Source: Fistulifera solaris (taxonomy: Eukaryota). From it: DNA of 47,812 nucleotides. The translations under genes were made by a program, and so were the position numbers. Location: contig AP026127.1 in NCBI GenBank assembly GCA_030295235.1, positions 1,488,001 through 1,535,812 of the forward strand. Direction: 5' to 3'. Below the pieces are notes generated by a model that was not told the DNA's origin, did not search any database, and worked only from the letters and a program-made list of their open reading frames with translations. Below are positions 5,601-38,186 of this stretch, piece after piece (the first letter of the stretch is position 1; each line of letters begins with the position of its first letter).

Positions 5601-7292
5601 CAACGGCGCAGGTCCTAATTTCAACCACGCAATGCCGTCAGAAAAACGCTCCCTTACTTCTACTGTTTGAATAACAGCAACGGCCAGAATGGACTTGCCG
5701 TTACCAGCCTTATCCCCATGTCTGGATGTCACACAGGTGATCGCGGTGTTCATAATCTGCCCATTTTCGTTCTCCTGGAACTCTGATTCGTCTAACAAGC
5801 AACCGACGACCTGTTTCATTAAGCGGTGTCTGTGAACATACTCGAGCGGCAGCTTCGGTACCGCAGATGGAATGTCTGCTTTAGGACGCCAACTAGGTTT
5901 CAATGCAGCGAGATCGGCATCTGCATTGGCGTCGTGATTTTTTAGTTTTTCTACTCGAAGTCCACGAATAACATCCACCAGCTCGTCCTTAGCTTCCACC
6001 GGTTGAATTTCCTTGAGTGGATTGTGACTTGGGCCTCTCATTAATCCGCTAGGAAGAAGATCAGTATCATCATGATGCCGAGACGACGGACTAGGAGACG
6101 CCGATCCGGATGAAAATCCATCTTCACCAGCGTCGTGATCAGCATCACCCTCGCCATCTTTGAAATGCTTTCGAAGTCTAGGTGTCGGCGTAGCACGTCG
6201 CGAGCGCACACGTCCAGCTGTCGGTATCAGCTGCCTGCCTCGACTAAAAACGCCCACGCGGCTACTCACGCTCCCAGATGGAGAACCCATGGTGTTCGCC
6301 GAAGTATCAGAAGAATCTTCCGTGCCACTTTCTCGTGGAATATCCGTGACTTGCCCGACCGCCTTTTCGACTTTTGCATTCCATGCACCAATGCGGTCGA
6401 TCAAATCGGTGTCAAACGGCTGCGCTAAACGAAAGAACAAGGTGTATTTCCGCTCTCTTCGAACTAGCATCGTCTCTAACACTCGATTTCCTTTTTTAAT
6501 GACATCTCTCAATCCCTTAAAAGTAGCGTCGTCTTTCAAAGCGCCTCTCGTGACTGTATCGACCGACACTTCATCGACAAGGGCAAGAAGCTGTCAAGAG
6601 ATAGCAACGTTGAATGAGTTACAAAGGAAAGATCGCAAAGAATTACAAACGGAGAACGATTTTTCTGCACTTACAAAGTCCAGATTCCCAACAAAGTTCC
6701 ACAATATGAGGCGAGCTTCGAATTCTCTCGAATCCATAGTTGCTTTATCACTGTCAGACGGCTTTTGCGGTCTTGCTCCTACAGCTACGTACGCATCTTT
6801 GACTCCTACTGCCAACTCATGAAAAAGTTTCAAGTTGGTGGGTGCTTTTCTGGGTAATTTGCTCGTTGAACCCGGTGCTTTGTCGTTGTAATAGCCGTCA
6901 CTGCGACATGAAGTCACCGCAACTAACATTTCTTTGCGCCTTTCCCCTTTATCATCGATAGCACTTAATCTAGGACGCGAACGGGAGCGTGATCGTGACC
7001 TATCGCGCAGTTTTTGAAAGACATTCCGGCGCGCTGGCGGAGGTGATTGTGTTCGCGGAGACTTATTAGCGTCCCCATTGTCATTTATTTTTGGGACGTT
7101 TGCTTCTACAGAATGAGCGCGACGATTCGAATTTCCCTTAGGGCTTTTCGGTGGCATCAAACTGTGTCCTCGTCGTTTGCTAGCAGATTCCGGTGAGATG
7201 GGCTCGTTCTGAGTCGCCTCATCATCTTTGCTTTTCCTCCCAGAAAGTCTCTTTCGAAAACTGCTTAAACTAGGCCTTGCTTTCGTTGACAT
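2644..7292 (-). CDS. NLR-like STAND NTPase: basic disordered N-terminus, helical domain, NB-ARC, C-terminal TPR repeats. One intron (6591-6674) and three homopolymer frameshifts (~4762-4766, ~3965-3970, ~3110-3113)
   Basis: Walker A GNGKS followed by VRERFSDGIAWLKLG, Walker B ILICLDDVW, KILITTR, GLPL-like CGNSPLGI, MHD motif (YTMHDSL), TPR-like repeats (LGPYHVYVAHALHSVAKAL; VYGENSVPVAKTINSYAILL). GTAAGT...GACAG intron joins NLDF|LLALVDEV in frame. Four consecutive ORFs join when one base is corrected in each homopolymer. Confidence 0.8.
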
Positions 7293-10178: not shown

Positions 10179-11162
10179 AACATGCTAACTGTTGTCGAAG
10201 AAATGTATTTGAAAACTACAACAGATTGAACCGTAAAACTGAACCTTTTCTACAGCTTTTTGTGTGTATTTTTACCATCCGTCGATGAATAAAATTCTGC
10301 GCTTATAAACAAAAAAGCAACCATTCTTGTTGCGGACCTGGTACGAACAACTTTATAGAATTACTCCGTAATTTTTACAGAAAATTAATGCAGGCTGTAT
10401 GATGTAAGTTTCACGATGAATTTGGCTGAATTCTCTCAAAAAAGTTATGGGCAAAACCCATGTTTTCGACGAGCTGCGTCATGTACTCTAGCCTAGCTAG
10501 AATGGAGCGACCTTGTCAGTCATGCGTACGGGTCGGGCTCAGCACTTGCAGATTTGTAACTTCTCAAAATAAAAATGTTTATTTATTTTGCTTCGTTTTG
10601 GAAATATTCAATATTGTGTTCATATTTAAGCGTAATTATAATAATATGATATTTTATGTTTTTTTTGTGTTGTGAAGCAAGATAATATCAATTTTACTCG
10701 ACGGATGACAGACCAGATTTAACGGTAACCTTACTGCGAAAAATTAAACGACGAAAATGTTAGAGGTTAGAGCAGGCATGATTGCAATGAGCAACGGGCT
10801 TGTGAGAGCACTCATCAATAAACTATAGTTGCTCCCTCCGTACCAAAGCATTAGACTAGTCAATGTATGAGCCGGAAGGAATTACGATAAGGCTTAATGG
10901 GTTCCAAGCACCACAACGGCATTTACTATAACGTAGAGTGTTGTCACAGCCCGACTGATCCGAGTGAGTATCCGAACTTACTTTCAGTCCCAAAACGGTT
11001 CGTCCGCATTCCGCATGCAGTTTTTTTTTGTTGCGTATTCGGCGTGTTGTTTGCTTGCATGAGCTATTGAACCTAAAATGTTATACGTCCTTAATTGAAC
11101 CATCCTACCATTTTCAAATCATCATCATCGCTTGTAACAATCTTATTATATATATGAATAAA

Positions 11163-12091
11163 ATGACCGACTTGAGCACCATACAATTGCTAAAACAGCG
11201 CTTACAGAAAGTAATAGATCAAAAGAAAGATGAATGGGAGGACGATGCGATCGTAGACTCTTGCAAAGACTGCCTCGACAGATTAGATGGAGTTGACATG
11301 ACACTCGCGTTACTAACAGATACGTTGATAGGTGCTTCTGTCGCCAAATTTAAAAATCATCCTCAGCTAGGCGATGCGGCCAAGAAACTGATCGCAAAAT
11401 GGAAAGAAGTAGCCAAAAAGTCGGAAGCAACACAACCAGCAGCGGCAAAAGCGAAAGAAAAGGGAAAGGCAATTCGACGTGAGAGCACAAATAGTCTCAC
11501 AGATGCAGCGACTAAAGAAATTACAGAAAAGTGGTCCGATCTACCTCCAAATCGACAAAGTATCTGTCAAAAGCTTTTCGAACTGCTCGAACTCGCCAAA
11601 TCGCATTTAGATGGAATGTCAGCCGAAGCCATGCAAGAGGCTCTAGCGCACACTGCCGTCGACGTAGAAGCTGCTATTCACGACAATAACGATAAGGACC
11701 GTAAAGCCTATTCCGATAAAGCTCGTTCGATTGCCTTTAACTTGAAAAGAATCAGCAACTGGCTGTGGATCTCATTTTTGGGTCGACATCTCCGGACGAG
11801 CTCGTACACATGTCTCCAGAACAGCTGGCAAGCGCAGATCAACGCCAAGCGCGAGAAGAACAGGCCAAAAAGCTCACCGACTCGCGAAGATTGGATTGGG
11901 AAGTAGCGAACGAGGCAAAAATCAACGAAATGTGTGGTATCAAAGGTGATCTACTGAAAGCGAGTTTATTTACATGCGGTCGATGTAAATCGACCAAAAC
12001 TACTTCAACTCAGAAGCAAACGCGGAGTGCGGATGAGCCGATGACTGTCTTTGTTCTTTGTATGAATTGCGGCAACAGATGGAAATGTTAA
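11163..12091 (+). CDS. TFIIS: Transcription elongation factor TFIIS; frameshift at A4 run 11745-11748
   Basis: N-terminal domain (LLTDTLIGASVAKF...AKKLIAKWK), central domain (YSDKARSIAFNLK|KNQQLAVDL...MSPEQLAS), zinc ribbon FTCGRCK...QTRSADEPMTVFVLCMNCGNRWKC. Alternative ATG at 11154. Confidence 0.93.
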
Positions 12092-21454: not shown

Positions 21455-22201
21455 ATGGTGATCATGAACAATCTATTTCGTTATCATTCACAAATCGCAG
21501 ATGTGGCGACCTCTCCGCGACGCAATACTGCCAGTGTCAAGAGCGCACCTCAGCTGCAACAAAGTCGGGACTTTTTCGACAAAATGTCACGTTATACTCG
21601 AGCTAGTGATCGGAAGAATGTCTTGAAAACGCTGAACGAATGTGGCGTACTCAAGCTGGTAACACTGCCTTCCAAACCGGCATCGCCTTCCAGTGAATAC
21701 GCATGGAATATGTTGGAAGAAGAAGTATGCCGAATGCGCTTTGACATCAACGGTGTTCCTCTCGGACCCGGCTGCTACTGTTCGAGCTTTTTCGAAATTC
21801 AAAAAATCCTAAAGACGGTGTGTGCCAAGCTAGCAGATCGAACAGACTCTTATTCGGCGGATGAACTATACCGTGAACTCATTGTGCGAATGGCAGAGTC
21901 AAATACTCAAGCTGACTCCCACCGCGCTCTAGATCCTCTCATGGGGAGTCCGCAACTTCAGCTGCAGGTGCCTCCCAGAGAATCTGCTGTTCACGAACCA
22001 CACACTACAGTTTCCTTGTACGAGGCCAATGGTCACCTACATTTCGTGCTTGATACGTCTCATACTTTCGGTTTGTTTCGAAAACTAGACTTGGGAAGCG
22101 ACAAGCCATGGATCAAAATCACCGCAGCTTTTCATGAGAGATCCAATCTTTGTACCGGTTCAGCGGTCCGTAATGTTGCAATCCATTTGCCTCAGAAATA
22201 A
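21455..22201 (+). CDS. Uncharacterised globular protein (~248 aa)
   Basis: ATG at 21455, mixed helix/strand-like composition (EEEVCRMRFDINGV..., HTFGLFRK, PWIKITAAFHERSNL); family not recognised. Confidence 0.65.
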   Translation: MVIMNNLFRYHSQIADVATSPRRNTASVKSAPQLQQSRDFFDKMSRYTRASDRKNVLKTLNECGVLKLVTLPSKPASPSSEYAWNMLEEEVCRMRFDINGVPLGPGCYCSSFFEIQKILKTVCAKLADRTDSYSADELYRELIVRMAESNTQADSHRALDPLMGSPQLQLQVPPRESAVHEPHTTVSLYEANGHLHFVLDTSHTFGLFRKLDLGSDKPWIKITAAFHERSNLCTGSAVRNVAIHLPQK

Positions 22202-22289
22202 GAAGCGAAGCGTAGTCTACTTGGAATAATGTAATAGTCTTATGTTTGTAACAAATGCAACGTGTCAAAATGCTCAAATAGTTTTAACA

Positions 22290-24431
22290 TTATGGCATAT
22301 CGTCACGGTCAGGAACTTCGGATCCGCCGGCAATATCTTCCATGTGGATGGCGTGATACATTTCGCTACTCACATTTACGTACTGCGACATGTAGGCCAG
22401 CTGACCTTTAATCGCGTCGTTCAATGTATCCACGCCAATCTTTTCAATTACTACAATGCAAGGCAAGTTATTGGTCGTACGAACGACGTTGCAGCGTAGT
22501 AGCCGATAGCGACCACTCAACTTACGAACAATTCGCGTCAATTGCAGCCCTCGCAAAACCAACATTACAATACGTCCTTTGTCTTTCAGCACATACCAAG
22601 CTGTTCGGAGGAAAATCTCGTACAAGGATTGCAAGTCGTTTACATTCTTTGACCCTGTCATGACACCCCATGGCAAGTTAGACACAATAGAGTCCACAGA
22701 TTCATCTTGTAAGTGTTTGCGTAACGCACGAGCATCCGTGCAATGGATTTCACAAGATCCTGGGGGACAATTTTCAGCCCGAGCGTTCTCTCGCGCTCCA
22801 CGGGCGCTTTTACCCGATACATCCATGCCAATACACTTGACTTGCTTCCCCGTCATCTCCATTGCTTCCAACAAAATAGTTCCGCCTCCACAAAATGGAT
22901 CCACCACAAGATGCCCGGGCTGAACATTGGCACAGCGCAACATGACGTACGCTAAATTGCATTTGATAGTGACACCATTTCGAAATCGAGTAAAGTGGCG
23001 GCGAGCCATTTCTTCCACATTCAGTTGTGTTCCTACCATGACAACGTTCCCCACGACATCGACACGAATCTGAACGTCATAGTCTTCCATCTGAGGATGA
23101 CACGTGTCCTTGTAATATTCCGATAAAGCACCACCGATTTCAAATTCGACTTGCGGTGCTCGAAATGCATGAGGTCCACCAATTCGGTCGCATGTAACAC
23201 GAAAACTGCGTTTGTTAGGACCCTGTAGATTTGGAATTCGAACGTCGCCTTTGACAAGCCGGTGCTTGTAGAACTGATACAATTGTTCACCATCGATGGT
23301 AGCAACGTCTTCCTGGATTTCATGCAAGTCAAAATGATCGTGGTATTGCATCAAATGATGTGCCGATCGCAGCTGCAGCAATTTAGAGACAATTGCGGTT
23401 GATGCCGACGAGTCCGATTCACACAAGTCAGATACTTCGTCGTTTCCAGGTCGCTCAGTGCGACAAATCGCAACGTAGCCCGCAGCATCCCATGGTCGAG
23501 GAATAGCCACCCAACGATCACGCAATTCACTTTCGGAAGATATACACTCCCAGATCTCCGAGACAGTATATTGTTCCGCCCCAATGTTAGTCCGCACGGT
23601 GTAGACCACACGATTCAGAGAGGATTCCTCCTCGAATTGCGATGTAGTCGATAATGCATCCCCAAACACAACCAAGCAACCTCCGTTACCGTCCTGATCA
23701 TCATCTGGCTGATAAACACTAGGAAGATTCCCTACCGGCAGATCTGTCATGCGTTGCAACCACTTGTCACGGCGTTCATGCTCTTGTTCACCCAGGGTAT
23801 CTTGACCGTATTGTTTACAGCGAAAGGTGAGATTGATGCGTCCTTCGGTAACGTTCGCTTGTCTGGGAATACTGTGCACGTACTGCTCTTGACAAATGGG
23901 TTCCATAATCACTAAAGAACCGTGTTGCAATTCGAGTGTGTGCTTCTCGAGCCCCTGCTTCGCGCGAATGCCAAACGACCGTGTCGCACCCAAACTGATA
24001 CTCGCAATCGGCGTCAAACGACCGATTTCTTCTCGATCGCAGTGCCAGCCGATTCGCTGCTGTCCGTCTTGATAGAAATTCAATAAACATACGTTGAAGT
24101 GGACATTTGCGTTATTCTTTTCTTTGTACCAAGTTTCTGCTTTATGTGAGATGGCTTTAATCGTCTCGGTAAAAGGTTTGCTTTGCTGTTGCTGCTGATG
24201 ATGAGCTTGTGGATTGTCGCGATACTTATATGCGTTGCTGTTCGTACTATCGCTTGCTAAATCATTCTCCGGCTCTTCGTAAAGAGCGACCCAGCGATTG
24301 ATTTTCGCGGTTTTCTCCCACGGCGTGTCGTTCAGTAATTGCTGATAAAAAAGATCAGCTTCTTCGAAAGGCAAGAAATTCGCATCGTGATAGACACAAG
24401 GAGTTTCTAAAGGCACTTTGTATTCGTCCAT
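22290..24431 (-). CDS. Fusion protein: ALKBH2/3-like 2OG-Fe(II) dioxygenase + THUMP domain + class I RNA (m2G-type, Trm14/THUMPD2/3-like) methyltransferase
   Basis: AlkB part: FNVCLLNFYQDGQQRIGWHCD, IASISLGATRSF, LQHGSLVIM, YVHSIP, RINLTFR. THUMP part: SFRVTCDRIGGPHAF..VEFEIGGAL. MTase part: VVDPFCGGGTILLEA, GMDVS, DSIVSNLPWG. Single intronless 713-aa ORF. Confidence 0.88.
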   Translation of the reverse strand: MDEYKVPLETPCVYHDANFLPFEEADLFYQQLLNDTPWEKTAKINRWVALYEEPENDLASDSTNSNAYKYRDNPQAHHQQQQQSKPFTETIKAISHKAETWYKEKNNANVHFNVCLLNFYQDGQQRIGWHCDREEIGRLTPIASISLGATRSFGIRAKQGLEKHTLELQHGSLVIMEPICQEQYVHSIPRQANVTEGRINLTFRCKQYGQDTLGEQEHERRDKWLQRMTDLPVGNLPSVYQPDDDQDGNGGCLVVFGDALSTTSQFEEESSLNRVVYTVRTNIGAEQYTVSEIWECISSESELRDRWVAIPRPWDAAGYVAICRTERPGNDEVSDLCESDSSASTAIVSKLLQLRSAHHLMQYHDHFDLHEIQEDVATIDGEQLYQFYKHRLVKGDVRIPNLQGPNKRSFRVTCDRIGGPHAFRAPQVEFEIGGALSEYYKDTCHPQMEDYDVQIRVDVVGNVVMVGTQLNVEEMARRHFTRFRNGVTIKCNLAYVMLRCANVQPGHLVVDPFCGGGTILLEAMEMTGKQVKCIGMDVSGKSARGARENARAENCPPGSCEIHCTDARALRKHLQDESVDSIVSNLPWGVMTGSKNVNDLQSLYEIFLRTAWYVLKDKGRIVMLVLRGLQLTRIVRKLSGRYRLLRCNVVRTTNNLPCIVVIEKIGVDTLNDAIKGQLAYMSQYVNVSSEMYHAIHMEDIAGGSEVPDRDDMP

Positions 24432-24542
24432 CTCTTACGATAGTGTTTATTTTGTGCGAAAGGGGAGGAAGAAAGAAAGAGAAAGAAATGAATGGCGAAA
24501 ATGACGAAAATATAGTGAAACCGGAACGTCTTACAGACGGCT

Positions 24543-25351
24543 TTCCAGAATTTCTGCTCTGGAAGCGATGTCTTTCATCATTCATCATTCAGAAATTCTG
24601 GAAAGGTGATTGCGATCACACAGCAAGTCTGGCCGATCCTGAATTTCTGGAATCGATGTCTGCGACCATACAGATGCAACCACACAGATGCAACCATACA
24701 GATTTTCTGTGATGTTCCAGAAATTCTGGAATTGGTCTTTGCGATCACACAAATTTTCTGTGGGTGTTCCAGAAATTCTGGAATTAGTGTTCGAGTCCAG
24801 ATATTCTGGATCTTTGTTTGCGATTATACAGAAATTTTTGCGGCAGTTCCAGAAATTCTGGAATCGGTGATTGCGATCGCGCAGTTCGTGGTTGATCCCG
24901 AATTTTTTGAAATCGGTATATGCGATCATACAGTCATTTTGTGGCAGTTCCAGAATCTCTGGAGACACTGAGGTCGCTCCAAAAATTCGGGAATAAGTGT
25001 TTGCGATCATACACTTTTCTGTGGTTGTTCCAGAAATTCTGGAATGAATCGGTGTTTGCGATCATACAGCTTTCGGTGGTTGTTACAGAAATTCTGGAAT
25101 CCGTCTTTGCGATAAAACACATTTTCTGTGCCGGTTCAAGAAATTCTTCCTGAAATTCTGGTGAAGGTTTTTTCATCATACAGAAATTCTGAGTATTTCC
25201 AGAAATTCTGGAAAAGGTGATTGTTTCAACTTACAAAATTCTGTGGACTTTCCAGAATTTCTGGAAACGTTAACTATATGATCATACAGAAATTCTGTGG
25301 ATGTTCCAGAATTTCTGGAGACAATGCAATTCCCCATACAGAAATGCTGTG
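24543..25351. repeat. Minisatellite-like array of ~15 palindromes TTCCAGAA(A/T)TTCTGGAA, mostly at 48-56-bp spacing
   Basis: Perfect or near-perfect copies at ~24715, 24767, 24848, 25028, 25197, 25250 and 25305, plus degenerate ones. The spacers share TTGCGATCA(T/C)ACA and TTTTCTGTG. Confidence 0.9.
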
Positions 25352-25501
25352 TACTTTTTACATAATCTAGGAAACAAGTATAACCTCCCCAGGCATCAAT
25401 AATTAGCTTTCTCTTCCCTGGTCTTAATAGTGGGTAGCGAGAGGTCAACCTAATATCACGGGATAGCGATGGTACTGAAAAGAATATTGAAATGGCATAT
25501 A

Positions 25502-26389
25502 TCATTTAAACAAAAGATCGTTGAAACTACATTTTTCCTTGTAATCTTTAAACCAGGATCGGGCCACGTCAAGTTGATGTTGCGGATGTCTCCATTCTTC
25601 GGGTATATATCTAGAGCGCTGCAATGTCGCTGGGTTAAATTGAACGGCCCATTTGCGTTTGCGCTGAATGTGTTTTTGTAAATTGCGACACGGATCTTGT
25701 TGTCGTGAATAATAATGATGGTTCGAAGAGAAAAACATTAGCGAATCATCCAGTTGTAAAACACCTCGTTGGAACGAAACCCGATCACGAAGATCAAGTA
25801 ATGCCAAAGCATCTGTCCAAAAACCAGTCTCATTCTGTGCATGCTTATACAGTGCGTTTGTCATGTCTTGCCATGCCTTTTGCGACCCTGACATGCAAGT
25901 GGGTGCAATGACTTCATGTACGACCAATGTGTCGGATAGAGATTGTACTGGAATCGTTGCATTGGCCTTGTTGCTGAATTTGTAAGAAAACTGAAAGTAG
26001 GCATCAGCCGTCGGATTGTCTTGTTTCTTGTAGTGAGGCAAGGGAAATACATCCCAATGACAATAATGTCCTCCTCGTGTTGCCATCGCTATCCACTTCT
26101 GTAGCGATGGAAGCGAAACGTACTGTTGCAGCAGAATCGTCGCTTGAATGTGAGTTGTATTGAGAACGGCAGTCTCCCAGCCCACAGCTTGCCAAGACTG
26201 TTCCCAGTATTTCAGCAGTTCCTGACTGTATTCGTCATTTTCGCCGAAATAGGTGTGTATAGTTCTTTGCGCCTGCGCCTGTGCGTTTGCTGTTCTTGTA
26301 TCTGCCGCCCAAGTTAACGCAATAATGAGACAACAGTAAATGCTTCGTGTCGTGGTGTGGCGGTCTCTCCTACACATCCTGTGTGGCAT
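25502..26389 (-). CDS. Putative secreted/type II membrane protein, possibly glycosyltransferase-like
   Basis: Hydrophobic N-terminal segment (SIYCCLIIALTWAA), then RTIHTYF...YWEQSWQAVGWETAVLN...KWIAMATRGGHYCHWDVFPL. The family assignment is tentative. Confidence 0.55.
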   Translation of the reverse strand: MPHRMCRRDRHTTTRSIYCCLIIALTWAADTRTANAQAQAQRTIHTYFGENDEYSQELLKYWEQSWQAVGWETAVLNTTHIQATILLQQYVSLPSLQKWIAMATRGGHYCHWDVFPLPHYKKQDNPTADAYFQFSYKFSNKANATIPVQSLSDTLVVHEVIAPTCMSGSQKAWQDMTNALYKHAQNETGFWTDALALLDLRDRVSFQRGVLQLDDSLMFFSSNHHYYSRQQDPCRNLQKHIQRKRKWAVQFNPATLQRSRYIPEEWRHPQHQLDVARSWFKDYKEKCSFNDLLFK

Positions 26390-27160
26390 GTAAATGAGGC
26401 AGCTTTCTAAAGCAAATAGATCCTTTGATGAGTCATTAAAAGAATGCACAATTCGCGTAAATAATCTATCGTAATGCCGCTGATATTGAAGATAGCTTTG
26501 TTACGTTCTTGCTTGTCGATGCAATGGAATGAGAAATGAGCGCTTCTTTCGTTTTGTGAAAACCGCATCAATTTTTACTATAGCGCAAAGAGATAGTTTA
26601 CGGCAATAACGACTCACTTGGATCTCAGTCCCGAAAATGAAAATGAAACTAAGACCACTACTTGGACCTTGTTTTAAACATTCATTTGCCGCTTTTTGGC
26701 TTGACATTAATGCTTACCATTAACCAGTCACGCATGGAAAATTCCAATCACTCTAGACTAGACTAGGTCTATGTAACCCTCTCTCCATCTGCAGTTGTTC
26801 TTATAGCACTGCGTGCGTAAAGAATACATTGCGTCTTGCCGCTCGCCGCTCGCCGCCACCATGTTTATAAATTTAGCGCTAAATAAATTTGAAAACATCC
26901 GTTCGAAACTGTGAAAACGCCCGTCACTCTCTTCGCGCTCGACTGATTTAGGAATTGCGCAGCAATACAGTGTAGATAGAAGCAAGCCGGCGCACCGCTC
27001 TTATGCCGGCGCAAAACTTCCCTCCTCTTTTTTTCCCTCGCGTGCTTGTGCCGTGTCATTTTCGTTTTTTCGTTTGCGCGCAACGACTCATTGTTTTCTC
27101 TTCTCTCTTTCGAGTAATTTATTCATTCATTCTCTTTGATAAAACGAAACAGGCACTATC

Positions 27161-29823
27161 ATGTCCATGTATGTACTGAAACGCAACGGCAAACGTGAAT
27201 CTGTTCACTTTGATAAGATTACGAGCCGCGTCAGTAAGCTTTGTTACGGCTTGGATGCAAAGGTAAGTTGTCTACGACGAAAGGAAACCCATTTGTAGTG
27301 TTTCATCTTCTTAACGCACTCGCTTCGTCTCTCTTTGTACTATTCATAGCACGTCGATCCGGTCGTCATTTCGCAAAAGGTCATTCAAGGAGTTTATCCG
27401 GGCGTTACGACTTGTGAATTGGATGAGTAAGTGCAGCAAACAGAAACTATAGTAAATATTTGCTTCTTCCTTCCTTCACTCACTCACACAATCCTTCTTT
27501 TCCTTCATAACAGACTCGCTGCGCAAACGGCGGCCGCCATGGCGACGCAACATCCGGATTACTCGATCCTCGCCGCTCGCATTTCCGTATCCAATCTTCA
27601 CAAGATGACGGTCGCACGTTTCTCGGAACTCTGTCAACTCTTTCATGATTACAAGCATCCGCAAACGGGAGAACCCGCTCCTCTCATCTCGCAAGAAGTC
27701 TACGATATCAGTCAAAAGTACGCGGGAGAACTGGACGGAGCTATCGTTCATGCGCGTGACTTTGAGTACGATTACTTTGGCTTCAAAACACTCGAAAAGA
27801 GTTACCTTCTCAAGATGCACGGACAGATTGCTGAACGTCCCCAGTTGCTATTGATGCGTGTTGCTGTTGGAATTCACGGAGATGACATCCCCAAAGTCAT
27901 TGAGACCTACAACGACCTTTCGAATCGGTACTTTACGCACGCTACGCCCACGCTCTTCAATGCCGGAACCAACATGCCGCAAATGTCGTCGTGCTTCTTG
28001 CTCACCATGAAGCAGGACTCTATTGAAGGTATCTACGATACGCTTAAGAACTGCGCCATCATCTCCAAGTATGCTGGAGGTATCGGTCTCGCCATTCACA
28101 ACATTCGAGCCAGCAAATCCTACATTCGCGGAACCAACGGAACGTCGAACGGTATTGTGCCCATGCTTCGCGTTTTCAACAACACGGCGCGTTACGTGGA
28201 TCAGGGTGGTGGCAAGCGCAAAGGCAGTATTGCCTGCTATTTGGAGCCGTGGCATGCCGATGTCTTTGAGTTCCTGGATTTGCGCAAAAATCACGGCAAT
28301 GAAAGCGATCGTGCGCGTGATCTATTTTACGCGCTTTGGGTGCCCGATTTGTTCATGAAGCGAGTCAAGGAAAACTCCACTTGGAGTTTGTTCTGCCCCA
28401 ATGAGGCGCCCGGACTTGCCGATTGCTACGGAGCCGAATTCGAGGCGTTGTACGAAAAGTATGAACAGGAAGGACGCGCTCGTCAGACTATAAAGGCACA
28501 GACGTTGTGGTTCGCCATTTTGGACTCGCAAGTGGAAACTGGAACGCCTTACATTCTCTACAAGGACGCCTGCAATGAAAAGTCGAACCAGAAAAACTTG
28601 GGCACCATTCGTTGCTCCAACTTGTGCACGGAAATCGTCGAGTACACCGCACCGGATGAAACCGCCGTCTGCAACTTGGCCAGTATTTCCTTGTCGAAGC
28701 TTGTCACGCCCACCACCGATGCGGAAGAAGGTAGCTTTGACTTTGATCGTTTGAACGAAATCTCGCAAGTGGTGACCCGTAACTTGAACAAGATCATCGA
28801 TCGCAATTATTACCCAATTGAAGAGGCTCGCAAGTAAGTTCTTTTCTGCTGTGTCTTGTTCAATGAATGGACGTCGAAAAGTCACCTGACCGGCTGCGCT
28901 CTCTTTCCAACAGCTCCAATATGCGCCACCGTCCCATTGGTATCGGAGTACAGGGTCTGGCCGATGCTTTCCAAATGTTACGTCTTCCTTTTGACTCGCC
29001 CCAGGCTCGTCAGCTCAACAAGGACATTTTCGAAACCATTTACTACGGTGCTTGCTGCGCCAGTTGCGAATTGGCCGAGATCGATGGTCCGTACTCGACG
29101 TATGAGGGTTCTCCCGCTAGTCAGGGACAGTTGCAGTTTGATCTTTGGGGTGTTACTCCATCGGATCGATGGGATTGGGCGGCATTGAAAGAACGTATCG
29201 CTCAACATGGTCTCCGAAACTCGTTGTTGCTAGCTCCTATGCCCACGGCGTCTACCGCACAGATTCTTGGTAACAACGAGAGCACTGAACCGTTCACCAG
29301 CAACATGTACAACCGTCGCGTTTTAGCCGGAGAGTTTACGGTCGTCAACAAACACTTGCTTCGAGAGTTAACTGCCCGTGGTTTGTGGAATGAAGATGTT
29401 CGCAACCGTATCATTGCCGACAACGGATCTATTCAAAACGTCAAATCTATCCCCGAGTCCATTCGGGAAGTGTACAAGACAGTGTGGGAGATTCCTCAGC
29501 GTTCCATTTTGGACATGGCGGCCGAACGCGCTCCTTACATTTGCCAGAGCCAGTCTTTGAATGTGCACTTGGCCGAACCCGACTCGAAGAAGTTGACCAG
29601 TATGCACTTTTACGCATGGAAGAAAGGATTGAAGACCGGAATGTACTATTTGCGCACTCGTCCCAAGGCAGACGCTATCAAGTTCACGGTCGATCAAGAA
29701 CTTATTAATGCGGACAAGCAAAAGAAAGCGCAGGCCGGTGCAAAACCAGTCAATGGATTCCAAGGGGCAGCAGGCTTGACCACCGTTAGCGACGAAGAGG
29801 AGTGCTTGAACTGCGGTGCCTAA
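27161..29823 (+). CDS. RNR1: Ribonucleoside-diphosphate reductase large subunit; exons 27161-27262, 27350-27426, 27514-28833, 28914-29823
   Basis: ATP-cone [83 protein letters not shown]-terminal CLNCGA. Three GTAAG...AG introns keep the frame. Confidence 0.97.
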
Positions 29824-31476: not shown

Positions 31477-31845
31477 CCACGATTATTGTAGTGTTGCAAA
31501 CAAGATGAGCATGAACGTTTGTTGCATTCACAATTTTTTGTTTTCGTTATCGATTTCTTTTTGGTGGGAGATCGCAAAAATAGACGGAGTATCAGTTGAT
31601 GTGTTGTCTCGTGGCGCTATCTGGTACTCGTCTTGGTGTCGCTTCGGTTTCGCTCCAGTAGATCTATCGTCCGTCGTCCGTCTGATCTCCTATCACCGCG
31701 ATCCGCGATCCACGACGATCACGCGATCATCGACGATGATTACAGGTACTGGTATTCGATTCTTTCATTCCGCTGCAGCTGTGCAGCGTCTCCTTTGTAT
31801 TCATTCATTGTCTTGAATAACACCTTACGATCAACTTCATGCATC

Positions 31846-34800
31846 ATGGAAGGCTTTCTTGCTTCGTTTTCTCCTCCATCTCAGAAGGATGAGACGTATG
31901 CTGACGTATCGGCTGATGTAACGGCCGCTTTGCAAGCGCTGTCTCATGCTCTCGAAGCAGCACTAACAATCGCATCCGTCTCGTCCTCTTCACCGTCTTT
32001 TCCTACACAACGTGACGCTATTACAGCAGATTGGCTGCTTCAAAAATGTACTTTACAAGATTCCTTTTTAACTCCGCAGCAACTTGCAATGTCAATTTGG
32101 GAAACAGCGCATTTAGAGAATGAGATGCAACAGCAGGAGGCACTCTTTCAATTGTTGGGCGAGCAAAATTTCGATCTTCTGCTGGAACTGACACCACAGT
32201 TACCACAAATCGCTAAAATAGCGCGACATTCGATAGAAGCAGCCGTCAATTCCGCTGCTCCTACTACTCCTTCCGATCCAGAGGTCTTTGTTGACGTAGA
32301 AGAAGAGAGACGTATCTATTTACGAGAACAAGCGGCGCAAGCCGCACGAACGGCATCACTGGCAAAGGCGGAACTGGAGGCACTTATGACTGTCACTTCA
32401 GGAGCTACACATGCAGCAATATCCAAGAAACAGGAAAAACAAGCGAGGAAGTTCGCGGAAAAGGCACAAAAGCAAGCAGCTGCGGCTTTACAACAAGCGA
32501 AAGATGCGGGGGCGATTTTGGACGAAGACGATTGGCTCGCTGTCTCGAGTACTGGATGGGGAGAGGGCGGTTTGGTTAACCAGGATGCAGCTTCTCTCAT
32601 AGCATTTCAGCAGTCACTACTTCCCGAAGGGACCAAAGAATACTACGAAATGAAAGGTTTGCCGGCCGATGCTGAATACTTCGAAGACGACAATATGAAA
32701 CGTGTCTTGATTCCAGCTATTCCTAGAGACACGGCGAAACTTCGTTCGCGGCTCAAAATTGTGGATGTAATAACGGATCCTCGAGAAGCGGCGCCGTTTT
32801 ATGGAACGACGTCGTTAAATCCAATGCAGTCGACCGTCTTTGAACGCGCGTTTCACAGTCGTGACAATCTGCTCATATGTGCTCCAACAGGAGCTGGAAA
32901 GACAAATGTCGCACTTTTGACCGTAGTGGCGCATTTTAGAGACGTTGGTTTGCTGAATGCTCCTGGGCGCATGGACACGGGACACAAAGTCGTTTACATT
33001 GCTCCAATGAAAGCTCTGGCGCAAGAAGTCGTCGAAAAGTTCTCTTCTAAGCTGAAACCGTTCATTGTACGTGAATTGACGGGTGATATGCAGTTAACCA
33101 GAGCAGAAGCAGACTCGGCACAGGTCATTGTGACAACTCCGGAAAAATGGGATGTTGTGACACGAAAGAGTGGAACGGATGAGTCATCGTTAGGGAATCA
33201 GTGCGGCCTCTTGATCATCGACGAAGTCCATTTGTTAGCCGACGAACGTGGGGCTGTGGTTGAATCGGTCGTGGCGCGTTTACACCGTTTAGTAGAAAGT
33301 CGACAAAAACAAGTCAGAATTGTCGCGTTGTCAGCGACGCTACCAAATTATGGGGACGTGGCCGACTTTCTACAAGTTCCTTCCAGTGGAGTATTCTTCT
33401 TTGGACCCGAACATCGCCCTGTTCCATTACAGCAGCAGTTTATCGGTGTCGGTACGAAGAAGATGCCGCGAGATGTCCGCGAGCAGAAAATGAATGAATT
33501 ATGCTTCGACGCTGTTCTCGATTCTCTGAAGCGCGGGTATCAAGTCATGGTGTTTGTGCATTCTCGTAAAGGGACTGGAGATACAGCCCGTGCCTTGGCA
33601 GAGCAAGCCAGCAGTGAAGGGCTACTGGATAAATATTTTGTGAACGAAGAGAAGGCCAAGCATTATGCGGCAAGAGTTCAAAAATCTCGCAACAGACAAG
33701 TGACACAGTTTTTTGAACAGGGCTTAGGAATTCATCACGCCGGTATGCTTCGAGGTGATCGCAAACTGACGGAACAAATGTTCTTCGACGGCGCAATTCA
33801 GGTTTTGTGTTGCACTGCAACTTTGGCGTGGGGTGTTAACTTGCCTGCGCATACTGTTGTAATCAAGGGAACGGATGTTTACAATCCGGAAAAAGGTGGA
33901 AATGTTGATCTGAGTATCTTAGACGTCCAGCAGATCTTTGGTCGCGCCGGTCGTCCGCAATTCGATAGTTCTGGTGAAGCTATTCTGATCACTTCTCTCG
34001 ACGCCTTTCCTCGTTATATGGATAAACTAGTACGGCCCATTCCGATTGAATCGAATTTCAGCAAGCAGCTCGCTGATCATCTGAACGCAGAGATCGCTGG
34101 AAGGACAGTCACAACGATTACGGAAGCAGCTACATGGCTCACCTACACGTATATGTACGTACGAATGGGAAAAAATCCTCTACAATACGGAATGCGGCCT
34201 GACGATGGCAGCGATCCGCTTGCCATTCGAGAACATTGCCTTTCCCTTGTTACAGAGGCCGCCAAGCTTCTCGAAGCCAATAAAATGATCTCCTTTCATG
34301 CTATGAGCGGCAATCTTTCAGTGAAAGATAAAGGCCATGTTGCTGCGCACTATTACATTCAGGCTGAAAGCATCGAGGTTTTTAACGAGCGGTTCTCGCG
34401 ATCGATGGTTCCTACTGACAGTGATTTATGCCGCACCATTTGCCTCGCGAATGAATTTAACAATTTAAAGTTACGCCCGGAAGAGGTTGAAGAGTTACAA
34501 GCGGTCGCTCAGAAAATACCATTGAAGATAATTGCACCTGGAGCGGACGAAATAGGGAGGAGTTTGATTGTTGATGCAGCGGATAAGGCTTTTGTGCTGC
34601 TACAAGCTTTCATCACGCGGGAAAGAATCAAGTCATTTACGCTCATCTCAGACATGAATTACATCGAATCCAACGCAGCTCGGATCGCTAGAGCTTTGTT
34701 TGAAATGTCGAAGCGTGAAAGCCGGGCAACGACGACAGTAAAGATGCTGCGAATTGCGAAGAGCATTGAAAAACAACTCTGGTGGTTCCAAACTCCTCTG

Positions 34801-37800
34801 CGCGTGTTCGAAGACGAAATTCAGGCTCATGTATTCTCGGCGTTGGAGAATTACATCAGCAACCGTTCTTATGATGCCTTCGAGGCGACCCTTTCCTTGA
34901 TGGAGCTGCAGGCGAGCGAAGTTGGACAGATTTGCAAATCGCGGAATATTGGAGGAAAAGTTCAGCGATTGATATCAATGCTTCCTCGGCTTGAATTGAC
35001 GTGCAACATTCATCCGGTCACGAGAGCGGTTTTGCGTATGCACGTCACGATAGAAGCTGATTTTAATTGGTCTAAACGATGGCATGGTGCAACGGAGTCG
35101 TTTTGGATCATGGTTGAAGATCCTGATGCGGACCGCACGTACCATGCTGAGCTAATCACTTTGCAGTTTCGCACATACCAGGATCCGATACAGCTTGAAA
35201 TTTGGATTCCCGCATTCGACAAACTTCCTGACCAATACACTGTACGAGCTATATCGGATTCATGGGTCGGGGTTGAGCAGATTTTACCAGTCCTTTTGCA
35301 TGGTAAGCCGAAAAGATTATATGGAAATGGCACCTGGTACCCGAAACAGATACTTACTATTTCCCCCAGACGTGCAATTTCCGGCATCTCAAGATTTAAA
35401 AACAGACGTACTTGACCTTACCCCTCTTCCGATTTCCGCTCTCCAAAATAATCGATACGAGAGACTTTATACCAAATTTGAAACATTCAACCCGGTAAGT
35501 CAGCATTGCTTGGTCTTCCTTATGCTTCCTCTTTTCTCACGTTGCTCGTTCAGATCCAAACACAGCTATTTCATGTGCTGTACCACACCGACTTTCCAGT
35601 CTTTTTAGGCGCCCCCACAGGGTCCGGGAAGACGATCATAGCAGAGCTAGCGTTTTTGCGCATGAAAAACGTCCACGCGGACGGAATTTGCGTCTATATA
35701 GCGCCTTTGAAAGCTTTAGCCCGAGAGCGCCTCAAAGAATGGCAAAAACGATTAGTGGACTGGACAGTGCTAGAACTTTCGGGCGATACGCACCATGATC
35801 AATCAGCTTTGCAGAGAGCCGATATATTGGTGTGCACTCCCGAAAAATGGGACCTTGTGAGTCGTTCGTGGGTATCGAAAAGTTTCGTTCAACGTGTGCG
35901 TCTACTTGTGTTGGATGAAGTTCATTTACTCGGGGAAGAACGCGGAGCTGTTTTGGAGGCGATTGTAAGCAGGACACGATTCATCTCGCGACATCTTTTG
36001 GACAAAGGCGGTGCAGACCAATTCACTGACAACAAAGAGCCAACGCGCATCATTGGACTTAGCACAGCGATTGCGAATCCAACAGATCTAGCCGACTGGA
36101 TGGGGATTGATACGACGAGCTTCGGGTCACAGAAGCTGAGAGGATTGTACAATTTTCGACCAAGCGTGCGTCCCGTCCCTGTCACTGTCTGGGTGCAAGG
36201 GTACGCCGGTAGGCATTATTGTCCCCGAATGGCAACCATGAACAAACCTTGCTACGCGGCAATCAAAGAACATTCTTCTGCGAAACCAGTTCTAATTTTT
36301 GTAGCCTCGCGACGTCAGACGCGCCTTACTGCACTTGATCTGATAAGTTATGCCGCCGCCGATGAGCTTCCTCGAAGGTTCCTTCATACGGAGGACCGTT
36401 ACATGGAAGATGTAGCCTCGCAACTCTCCGACGCTTCGCTCCGCCATACAATGCAGTTTGGAGTCGGCCTCCACCATGCCGGATTGTCAACTTCGGATCG
36501 CGACGTAGTTGAGCGCATGTTTTTGTCGGGTGACATTCAGATTTTGGTGGCAACAGCAACGCTTGCTTGGGGAGTTAATTTACCTGCACATCTCGTCATC
36601 GTGAAGGGCACCGAGTATTTCGACGGGAAGAAGCATGGGTATGTCGACTATCCACTTACAGACGTACTGCAGATGATTGGACGAGCTGGACGTCCTGGAT
36701 TTGATACGGAAGCAAAAGCGGTCGTCATGGTGCAAGAGGAGAAAAAGACGTTTTATTCGAAAGTAAGTGCTGAATGCCTTTTTGGTGCTTTGACCTTTTC
36801 GCTAATGTGCGCCGTTCGCAGTTCCTCTATTCTCCATTTCCCGTTGAATCATGCTTGCGCGAACGTTTACCGGAAGTATTGAATGCTGAAATTGCTGGCG
36901 ATACGATTCAGTCGCTAAACGAAGCTTTTGGATACATGTCGTGGACTTTTTTCGGCCGACGAATGAAGGTGAATCCATCTTACTATGGTGTTAGTGTTCG
37001 GTCTTCAGAATCTGCAGACGAAGATGTTCTAGACGCTATTGAAAACGTCGTTGAATCCGCCTTATTGTTACTTCGCACGAATGGCTGTCTGTTACAGGAC
37101 GACAAGGAAAATTTGTCATCAACATCGTTGGGCAAATGCGCCTGCAACTATTACCTGAAACACGAAACGCCTCGGCAGATGCAAATTGGTATTCGCGAGT
37201 CCATTAAATGGACGAACGAAAATATCAAAAGCAATTTATCTTTTTATCATGGTGTGATTCCTCTCCTGCGGACCGAAAGAATGGAGGAAGTATCCTCCGC
37301 CTGGATTTTGTATTCGCTGTGTGCCACCCATGAATTCGATGAGCTTCCTGTACGTCACAACGAGGAATTTTTAAATAAGGAGCTAAGTGAAAGCTTGCCT
37401 TGGGGTCCTGACACAGCTTCTCTTTTAAGCCCTGGGGCGTACATTCATCACAACGAAGAAGTGTTCCTAGATCCGCACACAAAAGCCTTCTTGTTGATCC
37501 AAGCCTTCTTGGCGAAGTCAAAGCTTCCCATCAGCGACTATGTCAACGATACCAAAACTGTTTTTGATAACCTCCCTCGCCTACTTGCCGCCATGGAGTA
37601 TCTAGCTCTCAACGAAGATGTTGGCATCCCCGGATCTTTTGAAGTAGTGACTCACTTCACAAAGACACGACAATTAATAAATGCGGTGTGCATGCCGAAT
37701 CAGAGTCCGATGTCGCAGCTGGGAAATGGGGCTGAAAATTTGTCGATGTCCTTGTTCGAGCTAAGGTGCATGAAGCGCGAAGAGGCGCAATCGCTTTTTC

Positions 37801-38186
37801 CGAAACAAAAGACTGATCGATTGTTGAGTGCACTGTATGCTTTGCCGCTTGTAACCGCATCCAATATCTCCATTTCTCCCACTACGGACAAAGCGACCGG
37901 AACTACAACGGGAAACCTGTGCCTGGATTTGGACTTGAACGTTTCGCCGACAAAAAGAGGCACCGAACCATGGGGTGTGAAGTTGTTAGTTGGAAGTTTC
38001 GAAAACCACATTTTGCTTGGTCATGCATCCTTGTCACTCGGTTCCGCACAATCGCGTCGCGTAAATATTGAATTCGACTGGAGAGAGGCAAAGGCTCACG
38101 GAGGTCCGGATGCTGCGATTGTAATTCGCTGCTTGTTAGATCAAACACGTGGCCTAGATTGGGAGCAAATGATAAAGTTGCAATAA
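31846..38186 (+). CDS. ASCC3: ASCC3/Slh1 tandem Ski2-like helicase with Sec63 domains; introns 35303-35369, 35495-35553, 36763-36821
   Basis: Two cassettes (APTGAGKTN/DEVH/SAT/GRAGRPQFD and APTGSGKT/DEVH/STA/GRAGRPGFD), the signature HYCPRMATMNKP, and Sec63-type EFDELPVRHNE. The introns restore one frame. Confidence 0.92.

Follow-up and report, generated by a model that had tools for sequence, protein, structure and literature searches.

Whether one gene can join an RNA methyl eraser to an RNA methyl writer, and what such a protein would act on, is the question raised by a locus in the genome of Fistulifera solaris. RNA methyl writers and erasers are normally separate proteins, and debate continues over whether tRNA methylation is truly dynamic. 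We analyzed a window of 47,812 nt (NCBI GenBank assembly GCA_030295235.1, contig AP026127.1, positions 1,488,001 to 1,535,812 of the forward strand), to which all positions below refer. An initial annotation of this stretch had described a fusion of an ALKBH2/3-type demethylase with a THUMP RNA methyltransferase, encoded in one uninterrupted frame of 713 aa, in an arrangement unlike that of ALKBH8.

The frame is as described. The whole gene (22290..24431, minus strand) is a single-exon open reading frame (ORF) of 713 codons plus stop, which begins with ATG, is preceded two codons upstream by an in-frame TAA and contains no internal stop. An open frame of this length with 174 database homologues (E ≤ 0.001) is far beyond chance, and most of the listed orthologues are colinear with it at 96–100% query coverage. 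Contigs from four sequencing runs (X1–X4) span both halves and the linker without any joint inside the ORF. The X1 contigs cover 30 of 30 bins across the region, the kind of run being unrecorded; in runs X2–X4, also of unrecorded kind, the bins on either side of the ORF (~21907–22308 and 24520–26500) are uncovered, an absence that is no evidence of transcript boundaries. The motifs quoted in the initial annotation all occur in the translation: IGWHCDREE (residues 128–135), H186, RINLTFRC (198–205), DPFCGGGT (511–518) and NLPWG (585–589). An AF2 model of the whole protein reached a pLDDT of 86.4 and a pTM of 0.71. We consider this a genuine intron-free nuclear gene, which encodes both catalytic modules, each of them intact, in a single polypeptide.

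The N-terminal module (residues 1–208; 23808..24431, minus strand) was identified as an AlkB-type Fe(II)/2-oxoglutarate (2OG) dioxygenase by Pfam, by a family profile searched against the PDB and by superposition. The Pfam family 2OG-FeII_Oxy_2 (PF13532) matches residues 17–204 with an E-value of 1.1e-33 (117.6 bits; cut-off 31.2), and the domain combines the double-stranded beta-helix fold with the HxD...H triad and the RxxxxxR 2OG motif. The metal ligands H130, D132 and H186 are invariant in 90 of 90 aligned orthologues, as are the 2OG residues R198, N200 and R204 and, beyond these, Y68, Y70, L116, N118 and Y120. Block conservation over the catalytic core (residues 121–140) is 0.89 and, together with that of the methyltransferase core, the highest in the protein. 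In the family profile search, only ALKBH3 (2e-25), ALKBH2 (1.4e-21), a rice 2OG oxygenase and E. coli AlkB (7.7e-6) reached E ≤ 1e-5; at this threshold there was no match to ALKBH1, 5, 6, 7, 8 or FTO. Structural matches to AlkB folds ranged from Z 22 to 24 (rmsd 2.0–2.5 Å), with ALKBH2 (Z 24.0, rmsd 2.2 Å, 184 residues) and ALKBH3 (Z 22.8, rmsd 2.3 Å, 181 residues) tied. The NCBIfam AlkB equivalog model was missed widely (37.4 bits; cut-off 267). The module is a Fe(II)/2OG dioxygenase of the ALKBH2/3 clade, the other AlkB subfamilies being more distant.

Similarity to ALKBH2 and ALKBH3 extends over the whole domain fold at 28–32% identity. The diatom AlkB shares with ALKBH3 the HxD...H metal triad and the 2OG motif RxNxTxR, and counterparts of ALKBH3 Tyr143, Leu177, Asn179 and Tyr181 are present. 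In the family profile alignment, the invariant Y70, L116 and H130 fall on Tyr143, Leu177 and His191 of ALKBH3, residues whose roles are described in PMC10816986. The lid appears to differ: in the profile-based alignment, the RED hairpin of ALKBH3 (R122-E123-D124) pairs with an invariant N45-R46-W47 and D194 with R133, likewise invariant, while the region of Arg131 faces an acidic loop of variable sequence. ALKBH3 is described as a tRNA m1A/m3C demethylase (PMC6411830); with such a lid, the diatom enzyme may have a specificity other than m1A/m3C. Unlike ALKBH3 and ALKBH2, it is also fused to an RNA methyltransferase and carries an extra conserved helix after the fold.

The C-terminal module comprises three domains. 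A ferredoxin-like domain (residues 274–370; 23322..23612, minus strand) was delimited by its beta-alpha-beta-beta-alpha-beta secondary structure in the AF2 model, by superposition, in which the first residue of Trm14 and of TrmN aligns to model residue 274/275, and by the profile, positions 265–591 of which pair with Trm14 residues 2–310. The following THUMP domain (residues 371–470; 23022..23321, minus strand) is marginal by sequence, with a Pfam THUMP match (PF02926) at 405–467 of E 5e-4 (20.9 bits; cut-off 20.6), but is confirmed by its fold and lies inside the whole-chain superposition on Trm14 and TrmN. The third is a Rossmann-fold SAM-dependent methyltransferase (residues 471–666; 22434..23021, minus strand), recognized by the Pfam UPF0020/RMKL-like family (PF01170, residues 478–637, E 5.5e-28, 98.5 bits), by its match to TrmN and by invariant columns. 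Motif I (D511-P-F-C-G515..T518), the acidic residues D537 and D566 and motif IV (N585-L-P587-W588-G589) show conservation of at least 90%, up to full invariance, and block conservation over residues 481–660 is 0.70–0.86. The motif IV consensus of such methyltransferases is (D/N)PP(Y/F/W/H). Compared with TrmN, motif I reads DPFCGxGT instead of DPFTGSGT and motif IV NLPWG instead of NPPHG, the second proline being replaced by leucine, whereas the acidic SAM-binding residues of the two align.

The TrmN entry 3tma was matched with E 1.2e-23 from the single sequence and 1.2e-32 from the family profile, which also matched Trm14 at 1.6e-24. Model residues 274–668 correspond to Trm14 and TrmN over their full lengths, so that the order ferredoxin-like, THUMP, Rossmann is complete. 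The superpositions reached Z 38.1 for archaeal Trm14 (rmsd 2.6 Å, 356/368 residues), Z 32.9 for Thermus TrmN (rmsd 4.2 Å, 331/332 residues), Z 28.1 for the RlmL-type 3v8v and Z ~24.5 for four Trm11 entries (rmsd 7.0–7.4 Å). In a review of THUMP proteins (PMC9957541), the distance between THUMP and the catalytic pocket is described as deciding between G6 and G10, THUMP is described as capturing the CCA end, and human THUMPD3 is placed in the m2G6 class. By rigid-body rmsd, the diatom model appears to have the short spacing of the G6 type rather than that of Trm11 (G10), although in a predicted model the domain arrangement may have been learnt from the Trm14/TrmN crystal structures. By homology, the C-terminal module is best described as a complete Trm14/TrmN-type unit and a putative member of the m2G6 class. 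The NCBIfam equivalog cut-offs of Trm14_Arch (87.8 against 280 bits) and TIGR01177 (94.4 against 316.55 bits) were missed; because these models were made for archaeal and bacterial proteins, we regard the diatom module as a class relative, not an equivalog. Best scores in a language-model protein atlas (0.81–0.82) went to THUMPD3, THUMPD2 and bacterial clusters, which lie below the trusted level and serve as leads only, and the atlas showed no large cluster with the fusion. Taken as a whole, the architecture proposed by the initial annotation stands, with an ALKBH2/3-type AlkB, a THUMP domain and a Rossmann methyltransferase in one gene and both active sites intact; its assignment of the second half to THUMP methyltransferases in general can be narrowed to a Trm14/TrmN-like enzyme.

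The two modules are joined by residues 209–273 (23613..23807, minus strand), which comprise a conserved helix after the AlkB fold and a variable linker of low model confidence, close to the ~23600–23820 (residues ~204–277) given previously. K206, G214, E215 and H218 are invariant at the helix, and AF2 places helices at residues 213–230; pLDDT is about 50–66 over 221–270. Block conservation in the linker region is 0.30–0.45, and the segment 206–275 varies between 56 and 113 residues among 90 orthologues. Docking of AlkB (1–232) on the methyltransferase module (256–713) scored 0.32, against a mark of 0.34, a value that speaks neither for nor against a fixed interface. The linker is long and flexible and sets no geometric limit on the reach of AlkB, so that action of both domains on one substrate does not follow from the architecture. 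The chain ends in a tail (residues 667–713 plus stop; 22290..22433, minus strand), defined by conservation, the AF2 model and superposition, that extends beyond the Trm14/TrmN fold, the alignments with which stop at model residues 665–668. Its residues 667–698 are conserved and helical, with D668, Q677 and L678 invariant. This tail and the N-terminal AlkB domain set the diatom protein apart from Trm14, TrmN and THUMPD3.

The fusion is widespread among diatoms. Both modules, AlkB first, were found with our own HMMs in 118 of the 120 best of the 174 homologues, and precomputed Pfam annotation contains both in 117 of these 120. The architecture recurs in separate genomes, among them assembled diatom genomes with contigs of 0.7–3.7 Mb, in metagenomes and in transcriptomes; 18 of the 19 organism-named sources are diatoms, both centric and pennate, and six orthologues come from MMETSP transcripts as ORFs labelled complete. 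A sequence labelled Gymnodinium smaydae may be contamination. None of the catalytic residues of either half varies among the 90 aligned orthologues, so the fusion is retained with its full catalytic complement across centric and pennate diatoms. Trees of the separate halves, an analysis that the initial annotation had proposed, are congruent and yield one fusion group each. The 36 fusion rows of the methyltransferase tree all fall together (SH-aLRT 89), and their group is nested in a clade with support 99 together with stand-alone choanoflagellate and Guillardia proteins and separate from 56 bacterial-length TrmN-like rows. In the AlkB tree, fusion rows and fragments form one group of 32 rows (support 92), and the basal pair P0108+P0115 is common to both trees. 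This congruence is compatible with a single fusion event. The nearest non-fusion relatives of the methyltransferase half are the stand-alone choanoflagellate and cryptophyte proteins, followed by bacterial TrmN-like ones. The trees were built without animal THUMPD2/3 sequences; none of these occurred among the 104 matches of one search or the 150 rows listed of another, neither search having been designed to exclude them.

AlkB domains are joined to methyltransferases elsewhere. ALKBH8 combines an AlkB domain with an RRM and a Trm9-like methyltransferase. The diatom protein resembles it in carrying an AlkB dioxygenase and a SAM-dependent tRNA methyltransferase on one chain, but its AlkB is ALKBH2/3-like and its methyltransferase is of the UPF0020 type with THUMP instead of the Trm9 type with RRM, which agrees with the distinction drawn initially; Pfam found no RRM or Trm9-like family in the 713-aa protein (E ≤ 0.1). 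In other protists we observed uncharacterized fusions of AlkB with a BMT5-like protein (rRNA m3U methyltransferase family), one of them labelled Amoebophrya. The AlkB domains of these fusions rank with the closest relatives that the diatom AlkB has (40–47% identity, E 1e-27 to 1e-35) and form a neighboring clade in the AlkB tree, whereas their methyltransferase is N-terminal, belongs to PF10354 and comes without THUMP. The BMT5-like combination is an independent fusion, a hint that AlkB-RNA methyltransferase fusions have arisen more than once.

Around the gene, an ASCC3/Slh1-like helicase is encoded 7 kb away, homologous to the partner of human ALKBH3. A metagenome scan around the fusion and the helicase gene, made with generic patterns, returned at least 79 loci with 21–53% identity in the best segment; none of those listed matches both query halves, and apparently none is an orthologue of the fusion.

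What might such a protein do? Our preferred reading, in which we place about even confidence, is a tRNA-directed writer and eraser or repair enzyme that couples THUMP-guided m2G writing to AlkB removal of m1A/m3C-type methyls. We infer its substrate, position and chemistry from homology. The protein would act in the cytosol or nucleus, because it has no N-terminal presequence: in 55 of 90 orthologues, only 7–10 residues lie ahead of the conserved core. Plastid or mitochondrial targeting was rejected on the same ground. THUMP would dock on the 3'-CCA end of a tRNA, as in other THUMP enzymes, and the methyltransferase would transfer a methyl group from SAM to guanine N2 in the acceptor stem, in position 6/7 geometry. 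On the same tRNA, the tethered AlkB could then oxidatively strip N-methyls of the m1A/m3C type, arising either as damage or as regulated marks, with THUMP supplying the RNA targeting that free ALKBH3 does not have. A strong argument for a common substrate is the covalent linkage, which predates the centric/pennate divergence and has been kept ever since without loss of either active site.

Read-through of two adjacent genes in an assembly or annotation artefact is, apart from its generic possibility, favored only by the existence of short AlkB-only and methyltransferase-only database entries, and we rejected these as split genes: they run out where a contig ends or carry the mark 'partial', and the close AlkB-only matches look like partial models, since they stop at the RINLTFRCK motif or inside the ferredoxin-like domain. 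The uninterrupted frame, the orthologues in independent genomes and metagenomes, the six complete transcriptome ORFs and the congruent half-trees effectively refute an artefact, the probability of which we consider practically negligible; two separate genes, the outcome named initially as contrary to the fusion, are seen in neither orthologues nor transcriptomes. It is also conceivable, if unlikely, that the halves perform two independent jobs, AlkB as a general ALKBH2/3-type repair enzyme for alkylated DNA or mRNA, perhaps with an ASCC3-like helicase, and the methyltransferase as a housekeeping tRNA m2G enzyme, with the fusion coupling only their expression or localization. The AlkB fold is as near to that of the dsDNA repair enzyme ALKBH2 as to that of ALKBH3, the linker is long and variable, and human ASCC3 provides ssDNA for AlkBH3 (PMC7608686), which would fit the helicase gene nearby. 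Gene adjacency is weak evidence in eukaryotes, however, and the fusion and its order are retained in 118/118 homologues that have both modules; no split form among the homologues is convincing, and retention this strict suggests a functional link.

Other alternatives concern the substrate. Instead of tRNA, the target could be another structured RNA whose 3' end is free or which offers a similar helix. Examples are U6 snRNA, in which THUMPD2-TRMT112 installs m2G72 (PMC13109388), and rRNA, the substrate of RlmL, whose fold is shared; the THUMPD2 and THUMPD3 atlas clusters also score equally. Over the whole chain, nevertheless, Trm14 (Z 38) and TrmN (Z 33), both tRNA m2G6 enzymes, give a better fit than RlmL (Z 28), in agreement with the sequence matches, which makes a target outside tRNA distinctly improbable. 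Very improbable, in our estimate, is sequential chemistry in the manner of ALKBH8, which PMC9957541 presents as an AlkB and tRNA methyltransferase making wobble-uridine derivatives. The diatom enzyme would install an N2-methyl group on guanine and oxidize that same methyl to a hydroxymethyl or formyl group, or reverse it, possibly tuned by Fe, 2OG and O2. A changed base specificity would be in keeping with the apparently altered lid and with R133, which is invariant and takes the place of D194 in ALKBH3. E. coli AlkB can strip N2-alkyl groups off guanine in DNA, which counts in favor of such a step. Against it, the AlkB sequence is not ALKBH8-like, G6 lies within a helix out of which AlkB-type enzymes must flip the base, and a futile cycle would be the simplest outcome, because N-hydroxymethyl products are usually unstable.

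Returning to the reading of a tRNA-directed writer and eraser, no published description of an AlkB + THUMP methyltransferase architecture was found in the open-access literature searched, outside which lie subscription papers and ~1.7 million further PMC articles. The words THUMP, ALKBH3, fused and bifunctional do not occur in PMC11312118, which covers microalgal RNA writers and erasers, and databases carry the fusion only under automatic names. The initial annotation had allowed that the architecture might prove already common and characterized: it is common within diatoms, while a published characterization was not found in the open-access literature. The same holds for any description of the TrmN-like eukaryotic methyltransferase clade that the gene marks, comprising diatoms, choanoflagellates and a cryptophyte.

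The fusion offers a testable system, since the gene is single and intron-free, some members of the lineage are genetically tractable and the separation-of-function mutants to make are obvious. Such a system can reveal by what means tRNA becomes the target of an AlkB demethylase, and of what use a tethered eraser is to an enzyme that makes m2G in the acceptor stem. A bolder proposal, which we hold to be quite unlikely, is that the protein constitutes a self-contained reversible tRNA methylation switch that, with a tRNA held by THUMP, writes m2G and erases N-methyls on that same tRNA, possibly including its own product. If this were true, tRNA methylation would answer directly to SAM versus Fe(II), 2-oxoglutarate and O2 in organisms whose ecology hinges on the availability of iron, and the ASCC3-like helicase encoded nearby might have been kept as a partner. 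Such a switch and the independently formed BMT5-AlkB fusions would jointly indicate that protists possess a wider, unrecognized class of enzymes in which one chain both writes and erases RNA marks.

The initial annotation had described an ALKBH2/3-type demethylase joined to a THUMP RNA methyltransferase in one ORF, and the sequence bears this out. The frame (22290-24431, reverse strand) comprises 713 codons from an ATG, which an in-frame TAA precedes by two codons, and its translation contains all motifs quoted for it. Pfam placed an AlkB-type 2OG-FeII_Oxy_2 domain (residues 17-204; E 1.1e-33), a THUMP domain (residues 405-467; 20.9 bits, just above the 20.6-bit cut-off) and a UPF0020/RMKL-like methyltransferase (residues 478-637; E 5.5e-28) in this single frame. 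ALKBH8 was ruled out as its identity, since Pfam found neither an RRM nor a Trm9-type domain.

Of 5319 candidates from a search of 5.8 billion proteins, 174 qualified as homologues (E ≤ 0.001). Among the best 120 of these, precomputed Pfam assignments gave PF13532 and PF01170 together in 117, and HMMs built from the two halves detected both modules in 118, with AlkB first every time. The other two (P0119 and P0120) start inside the ferredoxin-like domain and are therefore truncated models. For most of the 120, query coverage was 96-100% and identity 40-78%. Six are MMETSP transcriptome ORFs marked complete; in relatives, a single mRNA therefore spans both halves. A short-protein search against residues 1-210 returned 58 matches. 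Among the first 25, which we inspected, the close AlkB matches either end at or a few residues past RINLTFRCK (two are labelled partial) or extend into the ferredoxin-like and THUMP regions before ending. Judged by these ends they are fragments, and we rejected them as a split form; the AlkB tree places them within the clade of fusions. In contigs of four public sequencing runs from this organism (X1-X4; kind of run not recorded), both halves and the linker are covered, and no joint falls within the ORF. The two separate genes named in the initial annotation as the alternative thus did not appear among the 120 homologues, the MMETSP ORFs or the inspected short matches, and we consider an artefactual fusion extremely improbable. 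Some contigs carry clusters of single-base variants within the ORF (22449-22566 and 23802-23858), as expected for alleles or strains.

All 17 organism-named entries among the 120 homologues are diatoms: Seminavis (1), Cylindrotheca (2), Thalassiosira (4, one of them identified by taxid), Skeletonema (2), Nitzschia (2), Pseudo-nitzschia (2, again one by its taxid), Amphora (1), Cyclostephanos (1) and Bacillariaceae MAGs (2). Cluster look-ups added Conticribra weissflogii and a transcriptome that bears the name of the dinoflagellate Gymnodinium smaydae (either genuine or contamination), so that diatoms, both centric and pennate, account for 18 of 19 named sources. In a second search, of 1.84 billion cluster representatives (50% identity), 9056 matched at E ≤ 0.001; only a handful of the best 150 were full-length two-module proteins (P0022, P0058, P0071, P0112, P0115), the others being fragments or single-domain relatives.

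Separate trees for the two halves, as the initial annotation had proposed, each recovered one fusion group with the same basal pair (P0108 and P0115). The methyltransferase tree held 111 rows (36 of the 116 fusion rows with full coverage, plus 75 of 120 others; it excluded the remaining 80 fusion rows, the 45 others with the lowest scores and 15 diatom-like models that are truncated). All 36 fusion rows grouped together (SH-aLRT 89), nested in a 99-supported clade of stand-alone proteins of 400-520 aa, among them those of choanoflagellates (Diaphanoeca, Didymoeca, Barroeca) and of the cryptophyte Guillardia, and 56 bacterial-length TrmN-like rows lay apart from both. In the AlkB tree, built from 23 of 123 fusion rows together with all 42 others (65 rows), fusion rows and fragments formed one group of 32 (support 92), neighboured by a BMT5-like-fused AlkB clade, a Balamuthia AlkB and a DUF4326-AlkB protein. 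Because each half forms one group with the same basal pair, these trees, both unrooted and built without named sequences of animal THUMPD2/3, archaeal Trm14 or ALKBH2/3, are consistent with one fusion event, after which the halves descended together.

Other domain combinations occur among the relatives. P0167, P0176, P0213 and P0217, one of them labelled Amoebophrya, carry an N-terminal BMT5-like rRNA uridine-N3 methyltransferase domain and a C-terminal AlkB domain that ranks with the nearest relatives of its diatom counterpart, both in the matches listed and in the AlkB tree; AlkB and an RNA methyltransferase were here joined a second time, independently. Further relatives combine a tRNA U5-methyltransferase-like domain with THUMP and UPF0020 (P0192/P0280, 764 aa), a RING finger with a UPF0020 methyltransferase (P0166, 682 aa), or DUF4326 with AlkB (P0185, 795 aa).

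Across 90 near-full-length orthologues, picked by coverage from the 120, conservation peaked in the two catalytic cores (0.89 at residues 121-140; 0.70-0.86 at 481-660) and was lowest at residues 241-280 and 321-340. Invariant residues of the AlkB half include the metal ligands H130, D132 and H186, the 2OG-binding R198, N200 and R204, and Y68, Y70, L116, N118 and Y120; those of the methyltransferase half are D511-P-F-C-G515, T518, D537, D566, N585 and P587-W588-G589. Two conserved elements are family-specific additions: a helix C-terminal to the AlkB fold (K206, G214, E215, H218) and the C-terminal tail (residues 667-698). The helix and the variable linker behind it (residues 206-275) span 56-113 residues among orthologues. 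As 55 of the 90 begin only 7-10 residues ahead of the conserved core, a targeting presequence is absent. An AlphaFold2 model from this alignment reached a mean pLDDT of 86.4 and a pTM of 0.71, with low confidence at about residues 231-258.

Residues 275-666 of the model superimposed on Pyrococcus Trm14 (Z 38.1, rmsd 2.6 Å, 356/368 residues) and Thermus TrmN (Z 32.9, 331/332 residues), whereas four Trm11 entries reached only Z ~24.5 at 7.0-7.4 Å. By sequence, the family profile matched TrmN at 1.2e-32, Trm14 at 1.6e-24 and Trm11 at about 1e-8; NCBIfam equivalog cut-offs were not reached. PMC9957541 states that THUMP domains bind tRNA at its 3' CCA end, that TrmN, Trm14 and THUMPD3-TRMT112 produce m2G6 (and human THUMPD3 m2G7 as well), and that the choice of G6 over G10 is set by the THUMP-to-catalytic-pocket distance. 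Given this distance rule and a rigid-body fit to Trm14/TrmN rather than Trm11, the model points to an acceptor-stem m2G6/7-type activity, although a predicted model may take its G6-type geometry over from crystal structures.

The AlkB half (residues 1-208) resembled ALKBH2 (Z 24.0, rmsd 2.2 Å, 184 residues) and ALKBH3 (Z 22.8, 2.3 Å, 181 residues) in structure, and profile E-values were 2e-25 for ALKBH3, 1.4e-21 for ALKBH2 and 7.7e-6 for E. coli AlkB. ALKBH3, described in PMC6411830 as a tRNA m1A/m3C demethylase, has counterparts here of Tyr143, Leu177 and His191 (roles from PMC10816986). The substrate lid differs: in the profile alignment, ALKBH3 RED corresponds to an invariant N-R-W and D194 to an invariant R133, and the region of Arg131 is a variable acidic loop.

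The genes around the fusion are eukaryotic. They include an NB-ARC protein (STAND NTPase; 4722-6569, reverse strand; 616-aa ORF, NB-ARC E 4e-18), a TFIIS-like protein (11028-11903, forward) and a ribonucleotide reductase large subunit in two adjacent forward ORFs (27431-28837 and 28867-29823). The latter hold positions 1-275 and 276-523 of the Pfam barrel-domain profile, respectively, which fits a short intron or frame change between them. A dual-cassette Ski2-like helicase (31633-38186, forward; ORFs 31633-35415, 35506-36882 and 36774-38186) contains DEAD, Helicase_C, wHTH and Sec63 domains, each set twice; its residues 1-1260 scored higher with human ASCC3 (1063.8 bits) than with yeast Slh1 (1008.9) or Brr2 (943), and it is likely an ASCC3 orthologue by sequence. 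That it lies roughly 7 kb away from the gene for the fusion is a striking but post hoc observation; ASCC3 supplies its partner, human AlkBH3, with single-stranded DNA (PMC7608686). Directly upstream of the fusion gene, 24661-25319 consists of arrays of 53-80-bp units, each with the palindrome TCCAGAAATTCTGGA or a near variant. Summed depth in run X1 was about 200-310 here against about 20-40 on the flanks, and run contigs show many alternative joints within 24730-25336, which suggests a dispersed, multi-copy repeat family. Contigs of all four runs have an extra T after 20821, possibly because the window sequence is in error there or because strains differ.

The fusion protein is predicted to work as a methyltransferase of the Trm14/TrmN class linked to a dioxygenase of the ALKBH2/3 class. 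On the simplest reading, which we infer, the THUMP domain would dock a tRNA, the methyltransferase half would write m2G, and the AlkB domain, tethered via the conserved helix and variable linker, would strip m1A/m3C-type methyl groups off the same RNA, either repairing methylation damage or erasing regulated marks. A possible ecological reason for demethylation lies in methyl halides and other SN2 methylating agents, which diatoms make. The ALKBH3-unlike lid, the unreached equivalog cut-offs and the inferred common substrate call for caution. Two independent activities that are simply co-expressed are a less probable but still appreciable alternative. A target other than tRNA, such as U6 snRNA or rRNA, is unlikely, and slightly more so is a sequence of steps like that of ALKBH8, in which the enzyme would go on to oxidise or reverse the m2G it has made.

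A full-text literature search found no description of an AlkB plus THUMP-methyltransferase architecture, and a microalgal writer/eraser survey (PMC11312118) does not mention the fusion. Database names are automatic only, for example 'tRNA G10 N-methylase Trm11/alkylated DNA repair dioxygenase AlkB' or 'alkB homolog 3'. Assembled from well-known parts, the protein is a conserved, lineage-wide, uncharacterised eraser-writer fusion.
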